Positions 49,409 to 57,170 of a stretch of DNA of 64,000 nt are shown here, in pieces. How positions within the stretch are numbered: position 1 is the stretch's first letter; each line of letters begins with the position of its first letter. Under the pieces are notes generated by a model. It had not been told where the DNA came from. It saw only the letters and a program-made list of their open reading frames with translations, and did no database searches. Source of the stretch: Bacteriovoracales bacterium (GTDB lineage Bacteria > Bdellovibrionota > Bacteriovoracia > Bacteriovoracales > Bacteriovoracaceae); NCBI GenBank assembly GCA_028346125.1, contig JAOMEV010000002.1, positions 23,291 through 87,290 of the forward strand, read 5' to 3'. The translations under genes and the position numbers were made by a program.

Positions 49409-50188
49409 ATGTTAAGGCTTATTTTAGTTATTGGGGTGCTTTGGTGTCAGTTAGTACAGGCCAAGAAGTTTGCAACTAAATATTGTGAGTTTGAGCTGCC
49501 TGCAGGCTGGGAATGCGTTTTAGAAGGACTGGAATGGGTTTGCCAAAGTTCTAGTAAAGATAGGAAAAAAGAAGCGATTATTATTTTGGCCGCAAAGTTG
49601 AGGGGATCTCAGGATTCGCTTGATCAGTATCAAACTTATTTGAAAAAGAGTAAGGCCTTTAAAGTTCCTGGACGGAAAACTCAAATTTCAGAACCTAAAT
49701 ATGCTTCAATGAAAATTATTAATCGTCATCAATGGATTGATGCTCTTCATTTAGCGAGTGAGGTCCCAGGTTTTTATACGAGATACTTGGCCACCGTTAA
49801 AGAGGATTTGGGTATTGCTGTTACTTTTTCTGTTTCCCGTGTCCACTATGCTTCCTACCAGTCTGTTTTTGACAGAATGGTATCTACGTTAAGAGTTTTT
49901 AGACAAAGAAAAAGTGCAAGTAAAAGCAATTTGAAGTTTAAGAAAAGAGGTGAAGACCTTCTCGGTGATACTACGTATATTCCTGATTCAGGGGATAAAT
50001 TTGATATTGGAACTCAAAAGAAACGAAGGAAAAAATCCGGCGGGATGGGTGATGACCTTATTTTCATTATTCTTGGTGTGCTCGCTGCAGCTGGAGGGGC
50101 GTTTTACTTTATAAGAAAACGAAAGGGACCTGAAGCTAAAAAGAAAAAGAAGAAGAAAAAGAAGAAAAAGAAAAAGAAAGTTGAGTAG
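49409..50188 (+). CDS. exported single-pass membrane protein with a C-terminal poly-lysine tail
   Basis: Signal peptide MLRLILVIGVLWCQLVQA. TM helix LIFIILGVLAAAGGAFYFI. The tail has 14 consecutive Lys then VE. Confidence 0.55.
   Translation: MLRLILVIGVLWCQLVQAKKFATKYCEFELPAGWECVLEGLEWVCQSSSKDRKKEAIIILAAKLRGSQDSLDQYQTYLKKSKAFKVPGRKTQISEPKYASMKIINRHQWIDALHLASEVPGFYTRYLATVKEDLGIAVTFSVSRVHYASYQSVFDRMVSTLRVFRQRKSASKSNLKFKKRGEDLLGDTTYIPDSGDKFDIGTQKKRRKKSGGMGDDLIFIILGVLAAAGGAFYFIRKRKGPEAKKKKKKKKKKKKKKVE
50138..50179 (+). repeat. 42-nt homopurine (AAA/AAG)14 tract encoding poly-Lys
   Basis: Direct reading of 50138..50179: only A and G, in frame with 49409..50188. Confidence 0.9.
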
Positions 50189-50190
50189 AG

Positions 50191-52218
50191 TTACTTTTCT
50201 TCTTCAAAGAATATCGGATAGGCCGTTTTTAAATATCTTGTTTCAATAATTTTAAAGAGACTTGTTTCACTATTTTGAGAAACATCATCTTGGTCTGTTT
50301 CATATTGGTCGAGTTCTTTTTCAAGTGCTTTATCTTCCGTGTGGCCCAGTCCCTTTTTCTTTTCTTCCTCCTCCTCCATGTCAAAGTCAAATTTGAAGTC
50401 GCCCCCTTTCGCTTTTGGCTTTGCAACAGCTTTAGATGGAGGAGGGGCCTTGGCTTTTGTCACTCCAGCGGCACCTCTTTTTGATTGAGGTTCCCTTTTA
50501 TCCATAATTTTTTTATCTTTGTCGAAGCTAAAGGCCTTGCTTTTTAAATCACTTGAAAGATTGTTATAGTCGTTTCTTAAATTACTGGCCAATGAGGCCT
50601 TTTGGTCAGCTATTTCTTTATCAAAATCGTAGGGCTTTTTACCGGACTGCTTGAGAAGTCTATTAACATTACCTCTAATGCTTTTATTAAGTTTTTTTAA
50701 ACGAGCAGCATTTTTATTATTGTTGGCCTCAGCAAGTAAGTTAGCACCTTCAATATTACCTTTATAGTACTGGTCCATAATTTGGCCGTTGGAGTCGACG
50801 ATATTTTTCATTGTGGTAGGTGTTTGAAAACCCTCAAAACTTATTGTTGGCATCCCAGATTTTTTACAACTTTTAGAGTTTTGACAATTACAGCTTGGGT
50901 CTGTTCTCACTTTTCCCACCCCTCCTGTGAAACATTGACCGTTAAGAGATTGTGCCGCCATTGTTGAGCTCATTGATCTTATGATAGGGGCCTGTGCAGA
51001 TTGGTTAATACCAGTTGTTGAAGTTATTTGGGAGTTGGCCTGTTGAAGTTGTTGCATAAGATTAAAGTATTGATTGGCCTGCTTTTCTAATTTACCGGCA
51101 CCTTTTTTTACCAAAGCGGTTGTTCCGCCTGCAAAGCCAGCAAAGGCAGCAAAAACTGCACCTCTAATGAAAGGTTGGGACCAAGCGGCTTTAAGAGTTG
51201 CCGTTATGGCCGTTGTTTTTGCAAGAACTGCGGCCAGAACGGCGGCTGAGAGGCCCATAGAAGCTCCTGATGCAATGGAAGCAACATTCTCAGGGTCTTT
51301 TGTGTCTTTATTTGAATTTTCTTCCTCTTCTTCTGCATGAACCTTAGGTACAATAAGCTCCATGGCGAAAACGAGAAGTTCAGATAAGTTTTTTGTAAAC
51401 TTAGTGCTATCTTGGGAAAGAACATTGGTGTTCTTTATTTGTTCGTATTCTTTGAGGCTCAATGACCGGACTTCCCCTTTGTAAAATCGAGTTTCTTCTT
51501 GAAGAAGTGTAAATGACTCTAAATCGTTTCTTCCAGAAGATAAGACCTTAGCAATTTTTTTTAAAGGGAGAGATTTTTGGATAAGGTTTTTGTCAATCCA
51601 TTCATCATTTTCTATACCTTCAAAGAGACCGGTGGGACCTACCGGAGGAGGCGCATGGCATGGACCAAGTGTATCAGGTCTACAAGGGCCAGGACAAACG
51701 GACATGGCAATACCTATAGCTCCTTCAATAAAAGCAACAGCAGATGCAACTCCCCATGTGATAGAAATGGACATGAGAAAGTTTCCTTTAAGTGCCGCTT
51801 TATTCGCGGCTTCCAGAGTTTGTTCGCCAGCGGCTTGGAGGGCAGTGACCTGTTTATCGGCCTCTGCGGATTTGTCGTAAATTTCCATTGCTTTTTCTGA
51901 AGCTGATTTATAAGTGGCCCAATTATAAATTTCTTGCCCTATAAAAAAGGCGGCACCAGCTGAAAAAATGATGGCCGAAGGTTTTTTTGGACAAGAAATA
52001 ACAAAAAAAGGTGCTAAGAGGACGGTGGCGAACATCATAATAGTTGTCATCGCTATTTCACCAACTTTTTCTCCCGTTGATTTTTTATCGATTTCTTCTT
52101 GGTAAATTACGGCTTCTTCTTGAGTCGTGGGACTATCCTGGGCGTAAAGATTATAATGAGGGCCAAAAGAGGTTAGTGTTAAAGAAAATATTAAAATTAG
52201 GGTAACAAATGTTTTCAA
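50191..52218 (-). CDS. multi-pass membrane protein with Cys/Pro-rich loop and charged C-terminal tail, unknown function
   Basis: Signal peptide, several Ala/Gly-rich TM helices, CPGPCRPDTLGPCHAPPPVGPTG, C-terminal Lys/Glu-rich region. No family recognised. Confidence 0.5.
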   Translation of the reverse strand: MKTFVTLILIFSLTLTSFGPHYNLYAQDSPTTQEEAVIYQEEIDKKSTGEKVGEIAMTTIMMFATVLLAPFFVISCPKKPSAIIFSAGAAFFIGQEIYNWATYKSASEKAMEIYDKSAEADKQVTALQAAGEQTLEAANKAALKGNFLMSISITWGVASAVAFIEGAIGIAMSVCPGPCRPDTLGPCHAPPPVGPTGLFEGIENDEWIDKNLIQKSLPLKKIAKVLSSGRNDLESFTLLQEETRFYKGEVRSLSLKEYEQIKNTNVLSQDSTKFTKNLSELLVFAMELIVPKVHAEEEEENSNKDTKDPENVASIASGASMGLSAAVLAAVLAKTTAITATLKAAWSQPFIRGAVFAAFAGFAGGTTALVKKGAGKLEKQANQYFNLMQQLQQANSQITSTTGINQSAQAPIIRSMSSTMAAQSLNGQCFTGGVGKVRTDPSCNCQNSKSCKKSGMPTISFEGFQTPTTMKNIVDSNGQIMDQYYKGNIEGANLLAEANNNKNAARLKKLNKSIRGNVNRLLKQSGKKPYDFDKEIADQKASLASNLRNDYNNLSSDLKSKAFSFDKDKKIMDKREPQSKRGAAGVTKAKAPPPSKAVAKPKAKGGDFKFDFDMEEEEEKKKGLGHTEDKALEKELDQYETDQDDVSQNSETSLFKIIETRYLKTAYPIFFEEEK

Positions 52219-52499
52219 GCTCTGACCTCATATAAATTAAGGACGGTTTCTTCTCTTGTCGACCAAAAGGTAACTAAATTTATTATAAATTTTAATTGGA
52301 GTTAACGGACAAAAAAAGTCGCGCTTTGAGATTTAATTTCTTAACTCAAGGAAAATCATACATAGGTGTTCAGGTAGTGAAATAAAATTTATTTAGAGGA
52401 AAAGTCCTCTTAATTTTGGCAGACGGTACTTAAAAAATTTAAAAAAAAGAGGATAACCGAAAAGGTAAGAAGAAGATAGGTTCAACAAAAGAGTTAAGT

Positions 52500-53441
52500 T
52501 TGAGTTCTCATGAAGCAGAAAATGTTTTTGAAAAAGTTCATTTAGGAAACCTTCTTCCCAATATTATCGCTCCATGTGGGCTTTATTTAAAATTTAAGGG
52601 AAAAGTGATTCCTGTTTTGAAAAAGGGGAGTCCTGTCAATTTAGATTTTTTAAACAGAATGTATTCTAACAGAATTTATTTTGCTCTTATAAAAAGTGAT
52701 GATAAAGGTTTGTGGGATGACTGGATTAAAAAAAGATTTCCTTTTTCTCAGGCGCTAACGTGGTTTCAAGTTCAAGAAAATAAGGAACTTATAAAGCAAA
52801 TAGCATCTTTTAAGTCCTATGCTTTTGATAAGATAAAGGTTTCCTCTGATGAGGTTTCTAACTATGAGAATTACCTAAAAGAACAGAATAAAATTTTTAA
52901 TCGCTTTATAAAGGATATCAATCTTCGGTGGTACTTTTCTAAACATTGGACTGAACAATCTTTTTTCCTCTCTTCCAAAATTAGTTATATCCTTATATTT
53001 TTTTTGGATTTCCTAAGAGAAAAAGGAAAGATCAAGAAAGATAAAGAAAATGAGAAAGGTGTTATTCAGTTTGCAATCGTCCATAACCCAGAAACGGAAA
53101 AAAGCATTATGGATAAAGAGAAGGAGCATGAAAGGGCCTCTCTTTATATAAAAACAAATAAAATTGTTGTAGGAAAAGAATTAGGAGTCTTTTTAAGAGA
53201 AAATTATGAGTTTTATAAAAACCTTAACAATAAATCTTTTGATTTAAATCAATTTACAATTTTTTATAAGAGTTTTTCACTCATTCAGGAATTTGAGAAA
53301 AATATGTCCAATATTCATGGCGGAAACAGAAAGGAAAGAATTGAAAAATCATTAGGCCCATTAAGATCACATGAAAGGATGGATGAAGAACTTGTCACTT
53401 TGTTTGAGGATTTTTTGAAAAGGATTGTATTTAAAATATGA
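52500..53441 (+). CDS. hypothetical protein, first gene of the cyclase operon; possibly a degenerate HD(-GYP)-like domain
   Basis: TTG start. ATGA overlap with the next gene. SKHWTEQSFF...FAIVHNPETEK...NIHGGNRKE loosely follows H...HD...HHExxDGxGYP spacing, with catalytic residues replaced. Confidence 0.5.
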   Translation: MSSHEAENVFEKVHLGNLLPNIIAPCGLYLKFKGKVIPVLKKGSPVNLDFLNRMYSNRIYFALIKSDDKGLWDDWIKKRFPFSQALTWFQVQENKELIKQIASFKSYAFDKIKVSSDEVSNYENYLKEQNKIFNRFIKDINLRWYFSKHWTEQSFFLSSKISYILIFFLDFLREKGKIKKDKENEKGVIQFAIVHNPETEKSIMDKEKEHERASLYIKTNKIVVGKELGVFLRENYEFYKNLNNKSFDLNQFTIFYKSFSLIQEFEKNMSNIHGGNRKERIEKSLGPLRSHERMDEELVTLFEDFLKRIVFKI

Positions 53442-54916
53442 AAGAAGAAACTATAGATCTTCCAAAAATTTTACAAAATTCATCTTTAAAAAAGGTACTT
53501 ACTTCTATACCTCTTCAAGTTTTTGATCAGGCCAATCAACTTATATTTCAAGGGGGGTCATGTGAGGGAATTCCAAAAGTAAGAGGCTTCCCATTATCTC
53601 TTTCCAGTGGAAATATTATTGGACTTATTAGAACTGAACGGAAATATAAAGAGGCCATTCTCAAAATAATAGGCAAGGAAATAGATAGATATTTTGACAG
53701 AGAAGAAATCGAACATTTTAAGGCCAGGCACGAAATTATCTATAAAGATTCTTTAAGGCTTTTAAGAAAGGGTTTCGTTAAAGATTTAAGTAAATTAGAA
53801 GGCCTTATAGTTCAATATTTAAATTTTTTTAGAAACTATTTCCTTTTTGAAGGCCTGCAGATTTACCTCGTAGATGCTGGTAATTTAATTTTTCCATTTA
53901 TGGAGTTTTCAGGCGATGGACCTAAATTTCAAGGAGAAGAGTTTTCTTTTGATTTTGGAGAAATGGCCCAATTTGTTGCTTCTGATAAAGAGTATATTTA
54001 TATTGAAAACTGTAAGGATAATGAGATTATAGAGGCCTTCTTTCCGGAAGAAAAACTAGAATTTAAGGGCCTTCTGGCAATGCCACTTAATCATGATGAA
54101 GAAAAAGTAGGGGCCATTATTTTTACTGATTTTTTTAAACCAAATTTGAATGAAAAAGAATTAGAAGAGATTAATTCTTTTATTTTTTTACTATCTAGAG
54201 TTTTCATGAACTTCAAGTCACAAGAAAGGCAAAAAAAAACCGATCTCATTTTTAAAGATTTAAAAAAATATGTTTCAAAAAAAATGGTGGAAATGAGAAG
54301 AGATAATGAGGGGTCTGTAGGAGGGGTAGAGAAGGATATTACTGTCTTATTTGGACAAATACACCAGTTCCAAAAAATTTACAATTCCTTGGGACCAAAA
54401 AAAATGATGTATCTCCTTAATATTCATTACGAGTTTTTAATTAAAATAGCAGAGTCGTTTGGAGGTAATGTTGATAAGGTTCTTGGCGAATCTCTGATGG
54501 TTGTATGGAATCATCCTTTTATTCAGGATGAACCGGAGCTTTTAGCTTTTGAGGCAGCAAAAAATATGATTGAATGTTCTTGTCATACCATAGGTCCTGT
54601 ATGGAAAAAACTTGGAATAAAAAATTATTCTTTTGGAATTGGAATTAATACAGGTAAGGCCGTTGCTGGTAACCTCGGAAGTAAAGATTTCATGGACTTC
54701 ACCGTGATTGGAGATACTGTAAATGTTGCCCAAAGATTGGAAACGAAGGCATCACCGTGGGAAGTTTTTATTCATAAAAATGTCGCTAAAAAAATAAAGA
54801 GTAAAATTGGAGTCCCTTTAAAAGAAGTAAAAGGGCTGAATTTAAAAGGTAAGGCAGAAGAAATGACAGCTTACTGTTTCACTGATCAAAATTTAACAGA
54901 TCCTTTTAAGGTGTAA
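53438..54916 (+). CDS. GAF-domain class III nucleotidyl cyclase homolog, C2-like (metal-binding Asp pair lost; Lys, Asn, Arg retained)
   Basis: ITVLFGQIHQF (Q307 at the first metal Asp position), DKVLGESLM (E351 at the second), IGDTVNVAQRLE (N429, R433 intact). The central region is GAF-like. Confidence 0.8.
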   Translation: MKEETIDLPKILQNSSLKKVLTSIPLQVFDQANQLIFQGGSCEGIPKVRGFPLSLSSGNIIGLIRTERKYKEAILKIIGKEIDRYFDREEIEHFKARHEIIYKDSLRLLRKGFVKDLSKLEGLIVQYLNFFRNYFLFEGLQIYLVDAGNLIFPFMEFSGDGPKFQGEEFSFDFGEMAQFVASDKEYIYIENCKDNEIIEAFFPEEKLEFKGLLAMPLNHDEEKVGAIIFTDFFKPNLNEKELEEINSFIFLLSRVFMNFKSQERQKKTDLIFKDLKKYVSKKMVEMRRDNEGSVGGVEKDITVLFGQIHQFQKIYNSLGPKKMMYLLNIHYEFLIKIAESFGGNVDKVLGESLMVVWNHPFIQDEPELLAFEAAKNMIECSCHTIGPVWKKLGIKNYSFGIGINTGKAVAGNLGSKDFMDFTVIGDTVNVAQRLETKASPWEVFIHKNVAKKIKSKIGVPLKEVKGLNLKGKAEEMTAYCFTDQNLTDPFKV

Positions 54917-54919
54917 AAG

Positions 54920-56389
54920 ATGGAATTTAATGAGGCCTGTTTTGAACAATTTTATGAGTCACTAAACTTAGAGGGAATTTTTGAGGGCATCGATCATGTC
55001 CTAAAAAATTGTAATCAGCATATTATTTCAAAAAAGGAAACTGTATCTCTTGATGAAATAGCGGAAAAAAAAATAAAAACAGACGAAGGGAGTACTCTTT
55101 TTTTCCTAAAGGTAGAGGGAGAAATGATAAAATTTTATGAAAGTTACCTTTTACATTGCTGGAAAATGTTTATTCATGAGGAAAAAGAAAAAGGAATACA
55201 TGGAATTAAGGAAATTTTAAAAAAAGATTTGGACGGAATTTTGAGACCGAAAACTTTTAAGAATGAAACTGATATGAAGGAATTTCTTTCAAGATCCTTA
55301 CTTCGTTTGTCCATTTCTTTCCCTTGTGACGAGTTGAAAATTTTTTATCTTGATAATGATCTTTTAAGAGAAATGGCCTCATGGACCTCATTTGAAGTAG
55401 AAAATGAAGAGAGCATCGTACTTCCTTTAGATACAGATTCTATAGAAAGTATTAGCTTACTTAGTGAGTTTCCCTATCATGTCCCAGATACCTCTGAGCT
55501 AAAGGATATAGATTTAAAAGGGGATTGGAAAAGTTATAGCAGCTTTCCTCTATATTCTGGAGAGCAAATTATAGGTGTTCTGAGTTTAAAGAACTTATAT
55601 AGGCCTCATCTTACTTTTGCAGATTTTAAAATGATTGAATTCGTTTGTCAGGGTATCGGTAATGTTCTCGGGCAGGGTTTTACTCAACTCGAATTAGATG
55701 AATCAACAAAAGATAATAAATTTCTATCCAATTATATTTCCAAATTTCTTTTAAGTGAAATCGAAGAAGAGGGAAGTCAAGATCGTTTTAAGGCAATGAA
55801 AAAAGAGGTAGTTTCTTTATTTGCAGATATCAGGAGTTTTACAAGTATCAGTGAAAAACTAGACCCAAAAGTTTTAATTAATCTTCTTAATATTTACTTT
55901 GAAGAAGTCACCTCTGTTATTGAGGAGCATTATGGGACTGTTGATAAACTTGTGGGAGATATGATTATGGTAAAATGGAATATCCCCCATGATGTTAAAG
56001 ATGCGAGAATTCATGCTGTAAAGGCCGCAGTGGCCATGCAAAAAAAAATGATAACCAAAGTTGTTCCCCACTGGAAAAATGCTGGTGTCCCTATGGTGGG
56101 CATAGGGATCGGCGTTGATTGTGGAGAGGCCTATGTTGGAAATGTGGGAAGTTCAAACTTTATCAATTATACTGCTTTTGGGGAATCTGTCGAAGTGGCG
56201 GCTCAATTAGAAGCATTAGCAAGGCCTGGGCAAGTACTTATAACTGATCAGTATTTTAAAAAAGTAAAGGGTAAGATTCCAATGCCTTATAAGCAATTAA
56301 GAAATATACCTTTAAAGGGACGAGGCAAAAATAATATGGTTCATGTCATTAAAACCTTAGACTATCCGGATTATACGTCTAGAATGTAA
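54920..56389 (+). CDS. GAF-domain class III nucleotidyl cyclase homolog, C1-like (metal-binding Asp pair intact; transition-state Asn/Arg lost)
   Basis: VSLFADIRSFT (D303), DKLVGDMIM (D347), FGESVEVAAQLE (E425 and Q429 at the Asn/Arg positions). The central region is GAF-like. Starts 4 nt after the upstream gene. Confidence 0.8.
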   Translation: MEFNEACFEQFYESLNLEGIFEGIDHVLKNCNQHIISKKETVSLDEIAEKKIKTDEGSTLFFLKVEGEMIKFYESYLLHCWKMFIHEEKEKGIHGIKEILKKDLDGILRPKTFKNETDMKEFLSRSLLRLSISFPCDELKIFYLDNDLLREMASWTSFEVENEESIVLPLDTDSIESISLLSEFPYHVPDTSELKDIDLKGDWKSYSSFPLYSGEQIIGVLSLKNLYRPHLTFADFKMIEFVCQGIGNVLGQGFTQLELDESTKDNKFLSNYISKFLLSEIEEEGSQDRFKAMKKEVVSLFADIRSFTSISEKLDPKVLINLLNIYFEEVTSVIEEHYGTVDKLVGDMIMVKWNIPHDVKDARIHAVKAAVAMQKKMITKVVPHWKNAGVPMVGIGIGVDCGEAYVGNVGSSNFINYTAFGESVEVAAQLEALARPGQVLITDQYFKKVKGKIPMPYKQLRNIPLKGRGKNNMVHVIKTLDYPDYTSRM

Positions 56390-57170
56390 AACCTCTTTCA
56401 AGAAATAAAGTGACGGCCTTTTCAAATGAGTTGGGGTCTTCAAAGTGAGTATTATGGGAAACATCGTTAATAGATTTGTGATAACTATTGGGGACTTTGT
56501 CTATAAAATCTTTACCTATTTGAGTATATTTTTTATCTCTTTCACCAGAAATATAAAGGAGAGGTGTCTGATTTTTTTTAAAAAGGGGAATAAGGTTATC
56601 TTGTCTTCCTAAAGAAAAATTTTGAAGAGATTTTTTTATTTCTTTTAAGGAGTTTTTTTCTCTTCTTGTAAGAAGCTTATGAAAGTTCTCTTTTTTAGAA
56701 ATATCCCCAAAAAGTTCTAGATTGTACCACTTTAATAAAAAATTGTTAAAATCATTTTGAGAATGAATATGAGAGAGCAATCCTTCATCACTTTTTATTC
56801 TTTCTTTTTTAAGAAAATCAGACTCAAGTCCAGGATGACATGATTCTACGATAACTTTTTCAAATTGGTCTGGGTCTTTTGATAGGAGGTCTAATGCGAT
56901 TCTGCCACCAAGAGAATAACCTAAAAGAAAGCAGGGCCTTGTTGTAATTTTTTTTATATGGCCAAGAATTGAAAAAGAGAGATCATTGAAGCTTTGTATA
57001 GAAATTTTTTCAAAAGGGTTTACCCCATGTCCGGGAAGGTCTAAAAGAAGGCAGCTGTATTTTTTGGATAAAGATTGGGTTATCTCGAACCAATCGTAGT
57101 GGGAACCCATAAATCCATGCAGAAATAAAACCAAAGGTTTGGAAGGGTCTCCAACACGAAAAAATTTCAA
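56379..57170 (-). CDS. menH: 2-succinyl-6-hydroxy-2,4-cyclohexadiene-1-carboxylate synthase
   Basis: LVLFLHGFMGSHYDW, LLDLPGHG, LLGYSLGGRIAL, VESCHPGL, GERDKKY are collinear with E. coli MenH blocks. Overlaps menE by 4 nt. Confidence 0.85.
   Translation of the reverse strand: MKFFRVGDPSKPLVLFLHGFMGSHYDWFEITQSLSKKYSCLLLDLPGHGVNPFEKISIQSFNDLSFSILGHIKKITTRPCFLLGYSLGGRIALDLLSKDPDQFEKVIVESCHPGLESDFLKKERIKSDEGLLSHIHSQNDFNNFLLKWYNLELFGDISKKENFHKLLTRREKNSLKEIKKSLQNFSLGRQDNLIPLFKKNQTPLLYISGERDKKYTQIGKDFIDKVPNSYHKSINDVSHNTHFEDPNSFEKAVTLFLERGFTF

Follow-up and report, generated by a model that had tools for sequence, protein, structure and literature searches.

Adjacent cyclase genes with GAF-like regions and complementary active-site halves: a probable heterodimeric class III nucleotidyl cyclase in a Bacteriovoracales bacterium

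The active sites of class III nucleotidyl cyclases span the dimer interface, where one chain supplies the metal-binding Asp pair and the phosphate loop, and the other supplies the base-specifying residues and the transition-state Asn and Arg. The stretch of 64,000 nucleotides (nt) from a Bacteriovoracales bacterium analysed here, hereafter the window (GenBank assembly GCA_028346125.1, contig JAOMEV010000002.1, positions 23,291 to 87,290), carries two adjacent cyclase genes, A and B, behind a third gene, H. The question raised by this locus is whether A and B are two damaged enzymes or two halves of one enzyme. The six catalytic positions, canonically DKDTNR, read QKETNR in A and DKDTEQ in B, and the full set is present only across both chains. 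This pattern is best explained if A and B work as an obligate heterodimer (A·B) in which one site is active and the second pocket is dead, and we regard this as probable from the sequence comparisons described below.

Three open reading frames (ORFs) follow each other on the forward strand, H (52500..53441, 313 amino acids (aa)), A (53438..54916, 492 aa) and B (54920..56389, 489 aa), and would together constitute an operon of three genes; the host belongs to the Bdellovibrionota (Bacteriovoracaceae/Halobacteriovoraceae-like). The start codon of H is a TTG, and this start is uncertain. The stop of H and the start of A overlap in ATGA at 53438-53441. An ORF check and sequence read-out recovered the ORF positions, the ATGA overlap and the back-to-back cyclases as described in a first-pass annotation of the window, together with all peptide strings quoted there. 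The A/B junction (54914..54922, forward strand) reads TAA-AAG-ATG, with a Shine-Dalgarno-like AAGGTG motif within the last codons of A, and translational coupling of A and B at this junction is likely.

Catalytic residues were assigned by three routes: phmmer placement against CyaB (3R5G) and Cya2 (2W01), and also against the 6FHT chimera; MAFFT/hidden Markov model (HMM) alignments of 240 homologues, then of 150 more; and direct codon read-out. Both proteins match PF00211 above the curated cut-off (A, E 5.6e-18; B, E 3.2e-21). The first-pass annotation had read Q307 and E351 at the metal-binding positions of A, with the substrate Lys, N429 and R433 kept, and D303 and D347 in B, with E425 and Q429 replacing Asn and Arg. 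All three routes returned the same residues, and the reciprocal losses remained standing in the HMM alignment of the two domains. Neither A nor B alone holds the complete set of a homodimer (two Asp, Lys, Thr/Asp, Asn and Arg).

The class III cyclase homology domain of A (aa 299-480; 54332..54877, forward strand, as for all features of A and B) matches CyaB, Cya2 and CyaC in the PDB. Weaker matches are mammalian C2 halves, namely 1AZS_B, 1CUL_B and the C2 regions of AC5, AC8 and AC9, and A is described here as the C2-like subunit. It has lost the metal- and phosphate-binding half-site: alignment and codon read-out place Q307 (CAA, 54356..54358) at the first metal-binding Asp position and E351 (GAA, 54488..54490) at the second, and H309, Q312 and N316 occupy the phosphate-binding positions. 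A retains K347, T422 and K470, as well as the transition-state residues N429 and R433 (NVAQR, 54722..54736), which are invariant in the A clade.

B shows the opposite state. Its cyclase homology domain (aa 294-474; 55799..56341) has weaker PDB matches to mammalian C1 halves (1CJK_A, 1AZS_A and the C1 regions of AC5, AC8 and AC9) as well as the alpha chain of soluble guanylyl cyclase (sGC), and B is described as the C1-like subunit. Both metal-binding residues, D303 (GAT, 55826..55828, within an intact FADIRSFT) and D347 (GAT, 55958..55960), are invariant in the B clade, and the phosphate-binding residues R305, T308 and E312 are retained, as are K343 and T418. The transition-state positions hold E425 and Q429 (EVAAQ, codons GAA and CAA; 56192..56206), and neither is ever Asn or Arg, respectively, in the B clade. 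The Lys/Thr specificity pair of subclass IIIb is found in both chains (K347/T422 in A, K343/T418 in B), which agrees with the earlier call of Thr at the second specificity position of both proteins.

The substitutions in A and B are rare among related proteins. The canonical DKDTNR was found in 204 of 240 homologues from two database searches, and in 157 of 165 cyclase domains from about 160 other loci. Among the 11 closest relatives of A (29-97% identity), the six positions read QKETNR, QKDTNR, KKNTNR, IKNTNR or VKSTNR. No member of the A clade has the first Asp, and this position holds Q, K, I, V or L instead; the second position varies (E, D, N, S or P), its Asp being lost in many members, and K-T-N-R is kept in all. 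In the 12 proteins closest to B (31-95% identity), D-K-D-T is always intact, and Asn and Arg are both lost throughout; these two are replaced by EQ, QQ, ET, QM, HT, WK, EF, HV or KW, so that the Asn position holds E, Q, H, W or K and the Arg position Q, T, M, K, F, V or W. Within the homologue and locus sets, replacement of the first Asp by Q, K, I, V, L or R with intact K-T-N-R was seen solely in the A clade and in the first cyclase homology domain (CHD1) of a tandem-domain protein, P0339. P0294, with Asn at this position, is the only other protein with this type of change. Joint loss of Asn and Arg was restricted to the B clade and a few tandem-domain proteins.

The losses extend beyond the six catalytic positions. 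A column comparison showed that the Arg, Thr and Glu of the DIRxFTxxxE segment are present in 94-96% of canonical proteins, in 0-8% of the A clade and in 100% of the B clade. For the Asn of the GxNxG motif, retention is 100% in the A clade and 8% in the B clade, and for the transition-state Asn and Arg it is 100% and 0-8%, respectively. Thus, the equivalents of R309, T312 and E316 are lost in A only, and the GxNxG Asn in B only. Both chains, B included, conserve the substrate Lys, the Thr and the C-terminal Lys. A profile search of 1.84 billion representative proteins added six B-type and seven A-type representatives. The lost positions are variable and therefore appear to be under relaxed selection; free drift there and invariance at the kept positions together read as the signature of relaxed versus purifying selection. 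Taken at the level of sequence, the reciprocal pattern is more than chance.

The complementary genes also stay together. The order H-A-B, with an H gene of roughly 300 aa, was found in the window and at seven independent loci from metagenomes or metagenome-assembled genomes (L001, L003-L008), with unrelated flanks, on contigs labelled Bdellovibrionota, Halobacteriovoraceae or Bacteriovoracaceae. The two cyclase genes are adjacent at all eight loci, which bears out the conserved adjacency proposed as a check in the first-pass annotation, and all eight A/B pairs show the reciprocal residue loss, down to about 25-30% identity. Spacing is tight, with an H-A gap of mostly -4 nt and an A-B gap of -14 to +92 nt. 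A and B share a reading frame in the window. Since this relation is not kept at the other seven loci, where frames and gaps vary, a read-through or a recently split A-B fusion is ruled out. Both cyclase domains in one polypeptide, in the style of transmembrane or soluble adenylyl cyclases (tmAC, sAC), were not found here, A and B being two ORFs split by a stop. A scan of species-representative genome contigs gave two relevant loci (L009 and L010), and metagenome contigs gave at least two further A-type loci (L092 and L093), both on contigs that end at the gene.

In neighbour-joining trees built from 77 sequences (475 columns), A and B each form a monophyletic group (93% and 100%, respectively), and their internal branching orders are mirrored. 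Pairwise distances of A and of B over the eight loci correlate with r = 0.90. The two proteins of one genome share only 24-29% identity. The inference of a C1/C2-style heterodimer from complementary half-sites, made in the first-pass annotation, is thus strongly supported by reciprocity in all eight pairs, the additional half-site losses, adjacency, co-divergence and the C2 and C1 matches.

If A and B assemble as proposed, they would do so head-to-tail with a single catalytic centre. B would contribute the metal-binding D303 and D347 and the phosphate-binding D-I-R-x-F-T-x-x-x-E segment, and A would contribute K347 and T422 for base selection, N429 and R433 for the transition state, and also K470. 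The second, pseudo-symmetric pocket, lined by Q307 and E351 of A and by K343, T418, E425 and Q429 of B, would be catalytically dead. Conservation of the Lys, the Thr and the C-terminal Lys in both chains implies that this pocket has not simply decayed. Its retained base-contacting Lys and Thr may serve a regulatory role, by analogy with known degenerate pockets; retained ligand binding comparable to that of the forskolin pocket or the bicarbonate pocket of sAC is speculative.

The first-pass annotation had held that the product cannot be called from sequence. The Lys and Thr form the signature of IIIb adenylyl cyclases, and the nearest solved relatives are mostly adenylyl cyclases, among them CyaB (3R5G) and CyaC (1WC0); ATP is therefore the predicted substrate and cyclic AMP (cAMP) the likely product, and the call stays at the level of a prediction.

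Among other explanations, the one that survives best is that a B homodimer is the enzyme, possibly a weak one, with A as a dead paralogue that inhibits or modulates it as a decoy subunit, or that binds nucleotides as a receptor. B keeps both metal-binding Asp, the Lys, the Thr and the phosphate loop, and in other class III cyclases loss of Asn/Arg reduces activity, though not always to zero. Under this explanation, however, the pattern of A is hard to place: its Asn, Arg, GxNxG Asn, Lys and Thr show 100% conservation between lineages with only about 30% identity while its metal-site positions drift, as is expected only if its transition-state residues serve catalysis. The Asn/Arg positions of B, in turn, drift freely, so B does not seem to use its own. 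We consider a B homodimer as the enzyme unlikely.

Less probable still is that A and B are both pseudo-enzymes acting as sensors or scaffolds, or that each pairs with a canonical cyclase encoded elsewhere. Each protein alone fails a test for the full set of catalytic residues, and Bdellovibrionota genomes encode several cyclases, four in strain HD100 (PMC6717892), so that other partners are conceivable. The exact complementarity, the adjacency at eight of eight loci, the tight junctions and the co-divergence (r = 0.90) argue against both versions, and invariant catalytic half-sites are not expected in pseudo-enzymes. A Pycsar-like anti-phage module, in which the cyclases make cCMP, cUMP or another cyclic nucleotide monophosphate (cNMP) and H is the effector, is very improbable: PADLOC PycC profiles do match both cyclase domains (E 1.8e-14 and 2.7e-24) and flanking genes vary between loci, but these matches are no stronger than the generic PF00211 ones and reflect the shared fold only, H has no PADLOC match and carries none of the effector domains (cNMP-binding, TIR or membrane), none of the neighbouring genes is a suitable effector, the ancestral module of H and one cyclase (described below) lies in a conserved chromosomal context, and the Lys/Thr pair is a purine (adenine) signature. 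Membership in Pycsar was rejected because no adjacent gene encodes an effector in which cNMP binding is fused to TIR or membrane-spanning domains.

The origin of the proposed A·B heterodimer can be approached through its nearest canonical relatives, DKDTNR proteins of about 466-481 aa on Oligoflexia/Bdellovibrionota contigs. There, a single cyclase gene lies right behind a homologous H, mostly with the same overlap (L010, L089, L090 and the P0026 contig). The module of H and one canonical GAF-cyclase spans L010:2678-5025, L089:3090-5440 and L090:3072-5401, flanked upstream by an oppositely oriented gene of the squalene/phytoene-synthase family and downstream by epimerase and RNase T/WYL genes. 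Its H proteins already have HE for HD and QDE for HHE. From these sequences, the module is likely the ancestral, homodimeric form. One old tandem duplication of the canonical H-linked GAF-cyclase would have given A and B, followed by accelerated, complementary loss of active-site halves; a single duplication with subsequent complementary degeneration is the simplest reading. Branches are much shorter in the canonical clade, with mean within-clade distances of 0.55 for the canonical proteins, 1.25 for B and 1.53 for A.

Several points weigh against the heterodimer as set out above, or against parts of it. Physical binding of A to B is a prediction drawn from their sequences. B keeps both Asp, the Lys and the Thr, so a B homodimer could hold weak activity, and the retention of Lys and Thr in B, where they would face the dead pocket, is unexplained by the simple model. 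The prediction of cAMP as the product is drawn from two residues. In a second tree on the cyclase domain alone (60 replicates), A, B and the canonical clade are united against the outgroups in 59 of 60 replicates. Nevertheless, A and B were never sisters to the exclusion of the canonical proteins (0/100, and 0/60 on the cyclase domain), and the cyclase domain grouped B with the canonical clade in 40/60 replicates and A with it in 20/60. The distance trees are thus compatible with a canonical clade that branched off either before or after the A/B split, and long-branch effects probably play a part. Finally, the GAF matches of the window proteins themselves lie below the Pfam gathering score (GAF_2 E 0.017 for A; GAF E 0.0051 for B, aa 120-247).

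The presence of a GAF domain in both proteins, as given in the first-pass annotation, finds support at the family level and in the structure model of B, although not by the Pfam cut-off for the window proteins. GAF families are matched at E<=0.01 by 9 of 13 A-clade and 8 of 13 B-clade members, the best at about 1e-7. The GAF-like sensor region of A (aa 142-252; 53861..54193) is placed by its GAF_2 match and the A-clade matches, and that of B (aa 116-232; 55265..55615) by its Pfam GAF match, the B-clade matches and the AlphaFold2 topology. The AlphaFold2 model of B has a mean predicted local distance difference test score (pLDDT) of 80.9. It comprises an N-terminal beta domain (aa 1-65), a helix (69-108), the GAF-like alpha/beta region (116-232), a long helix (233-283) and the cyclase domain (293-477). 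The best full-length Foldseek match of this model is the phytochrome-cyclase 6FHT, and its cyclase domain superposes on CyaC, CyaB and Cya2 with template modelling (TM) scores of 0.81-0.89. In both A and B, a cyclase domain of class III (IIIb) would accordingly be preceded by a small N-terminal domain, a GAF-like domain and a long signalling helix. The NKFDE signature (NK...F...DE) was found in none of 16 A/B proteins by a regular-expression search, which is a crude one. The N-terminal and GAF-like regions of A and B have diverged and lack NKFDE; therefore, two different inputs may converge on one catalytic site.

At its C-terminus, B carries a tail motif, Y482-P483-D484-Y485 (56363..56374), that is invariant in the B clade. 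By-eye inspection showed the YPDY tail (LDYPDY) in 13 of 13 B-clade proteins, and it was absent from the C-termini of A and of the canonical L010 cyclase. It is possibly a docking motif.

H is a conserved part of the module with A and B, being immediately upstream of the cyclase gene or genes at 11 of 11 loci examined. The H of the window had no Pfam or NCBIfam match. Profile comparison points to a degenerate HD-GYP-like (Bd1817-like) protein with an N-terminal beta domain and a helical domain: the H clade matches its distant orthologues with an hhalign probability of 99.9 (E 2e-36), three distant orthologues match PF13487 (HD_5/HD-GYP; best 4.5e-10), and the profile of the distant H proteins (alignment A5) matches Bd1817 (3TM8) over its full length, including the N-terminal domain (E 2.4e-5). 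A model of H built from six close homologues had a mean pLDDT of 50.5, too poor for a fold search. The metal-ligand motifs of HD-GYP proteins (H...HD...H...HHE...D) and the GYP motif are not preserved in H. The family has HE for HD and QDE or HDE for HHE. In place of GYP it shows G[VNFI]P or no motif at all, and the region of the H212 ligand of Bd1817 is deleted; in the window, the motifs are eroded further, with HSARV changed to LSSKI, HD to HN, and the GYP region gone.

Bd1817 is the closest solved relative of the H family across the N-terminal domain, the linker and the HD-GYP domain, and it also departs from the HD-GYP consensus. In contrast to the H family, with HE (HN in the window), QDE and the deletion in the H212 region, Bd1817 retains HD and a binuclear metal site. 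It has been described as an unconventional HD-GYP protein for which hydrolysis or binding of cyclic di-GMP (c-di-GMP) was undetected (PMC3188283), and degenerate HD-GYP proteins that work via protein-protein contacts are known (bioRxiv 10.1101/2021.11.05.467447). H is predicted from its sequence to be a non-hydrolytic partner or regulator of the cyclases. As its stop overlaps the cyclase start at most loci (ATGA), it would likely be co-produced with them as a binding partner or regulator, and the old, overlap-coupled linkage of H and cyclase argues for a physical or functional complex. A location of bd1817 itself beside a cyclase gene in strain HD100 is not supported, bd0081, bd1116, bd2640 and bd3072 not being adjacent to it (gene numbers from PMC6717892).

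The predicted arrangement resembles that of the mammalian membrane adenylyl cyclases (VC1·IIC2, 1AZS/1CJK), in which the Asp pair and phosphate loop lie in one half and the Lys, Asn and Arg in the other, and next to the one active site lies a degenerate, pseudo-symmetric pocket known as the forskolin site; the best scores of B are against the C1 halves and those of A against the C2 halves. Unlike the mammalian enzymes, A and B are two genes for soluble proteins with GAF-like sensors rather than six-transmembrane (6TM) blocks, belong to subclass IIIb (Thr) and not IIIa (Asp), are ordered C2-like then C1-like, keep Lys and Thr in the dead pocket, and have an independent origin in the Bdellovibrionota. 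Similar to A and B, ADCY10 is a class IIIb Lys/Thr pseudo-heterodimer with one active and one degenerate site, and weak matches to 4CLF/4CM0 were obtained; it differs in being a single polypeptide (C1-C2) with no GAF domain. The degenerate site of ADCY10 is regulatory, and bicarbonate binds there.

In the laboratory, engineered Asp-minus and Asn/Arg-minus mutants of Rv1625c and of Anabaena CyaB1 reportedly complement each other; such work by Guo et al. (2001) is cited in PMC9552081. Such mutants are a proof of principle that Asp-minus and Asn/Arg-minus subunits rebuild one site; they are artificial and derive from one gene, whereas the A/B state is natural, ancient and clade-fixed. Anabaena CyaB1 and CyaB2 share with A and B an N-terminal GAF that is helix-linked to a class IIIb cyclase domain, but they are homodimers with tandem cAMP-binding GAFs that carry NKFDE, and A and B have a single GAF-like domain without it. 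Obligate class III heterodimers of two gene products, each with its own sensor, are known from sGC alpha/beta and chytrid RGC/NeoR (PMC3591389, PMC8815786). B matches the sGC alpha chains, although these systems are eukaryotic, GTP-specific (Glu/Cys or similar) and equipped with H-NOX/PAS or rhodopsin sensors. Pseudo-heterodimers have been traced to duplication and fusion in early eukaryotes, bacterial monomers forming two productive centres (Schultz 2022, PMC9552081). A full-text literature search did not find a natural bacterial two-gene complementary cyclase heterodimer described, and an earlier mention is possible.

What would be new in A and B is a natural, bacterial, two-gene and soluble version of such a heterodimer, with GAF-type sensors, fixed in a clade, with a pseudo-HD-GYP partner and a surviving homodimeric ancestor. 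The enzyme chemistry and the fold are not new, and a known principle would have been convergently re-used. As a natural, genetically split cyclase of the C1/C2 type, the locus should be suited to expression and dissection. The ancestral homodimeric state in related Oligoflexia/Bdellovibrionota contigs would make it a clean system for studying how a homodimer evolves into an obligate heterodimer. The link of a cyclase to a degenerate HD-GYP protein may offer a function for the "inactive" HD-GYP proteins of the Bd1817 type, and could join cAMP with c-di-GMP-type signalling parts in predatory bacteria. A further step, which we regard as tentative and rather doubtful, is to see in H-A-B a three-protein signalling machine, an independent bacterial re-invention of the mammalian design, in which the dead pocket is re-used as an allosteric nucleotide or bicarbonate site and H, as a pseudo-phosphodiesterase, docks on the heterodimer or senses its product.

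Degenerate cyclase domains were also observed in tandem-domain proteins. P0339 (L091:889-3579), of 896 aa and high guanine-plus-cytosine content, came from the search of 1.84 billion proteins and contains two cyclase domains, each preceded by a hydrophobic, membrane-like block. CHD1 is C2-like (RKPTNR), and CHD2 is C1-like, with D-R-T-E...D kept, Asn/Arg changed to T/A and Lys to S. The protein is a single-chain pseudo-heterodimer with a topology like that of mammalian adenylyl cyclases, is unrelated to the A/B clade, and is known from one 3.6-kb contig. P0254, P0263, P0294 and P0265 contain two or three cyclase domains each, some of them partly degenerate. P0254 combines a B-type, a partly degenerate and a canonical domain (contigs up to 232 kb), and P0265 has a Glu/Gly guanylyl-type pair, with the first Asp lost in one domain. 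Reciprocal degeneration of class III cyclase domains may be recurrent outside animals. Should the bacterial re-invention hold, P0339 would make class III heterodimerisation a recurrent bacterial route and not a eukaryotic invention.

Upstream of H, the intergenic region (52219..52499, forward strand) is a 281-nt gap after a divergent gene and presumably contains the operon promoter. A promoter and terminator scan of 52100-56700 gave matches at background level only, including a single, weak sigma-70-like match at 52259-52286, and an Rfam scan of the whole window matched no family. The divergent gene (50191-52218, reverse strand) encodes a 675-aa low-complexity, secreted-looking protein, rich in Ala, Lys and Ser and with several Cys, without a Pfam match. 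Before it, a 259-aa ORF without a Pfam match (49409-50188, forward strand) has a signal-like N-terminus and a C-terminal membrane-like segment, and terminates in a run of 16 consecutive lysines (…KKKKKKKKKKKKKKKKVE).

Downstream of the operon, in the segment 56379-58516 (reverse strand), a convergent gene for an alpha/beta-hydrolase (menH-like) shares 11 nt with the 3' end of B, and behind it lies a gene for an AMP-binding ligase (menE-like); there is no space for an intrinsic terminator 3' of B. About 2.5 kb downstream, the segment 58935-62550 encodes a stand-alone response regulator (reverse strand) and a 938-aa 7TMR-DISM hybrid histidine kinase (forward strand), a pair that is not kept beside the triad at the other loci. 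At two of the eight triad loci, in what may be either residual synteny or a sign of mobility, a gene for a XerC/D-like tyrosine recombinase lies just upstream of the triad (L003:498-1580 and L006:2459-3433).

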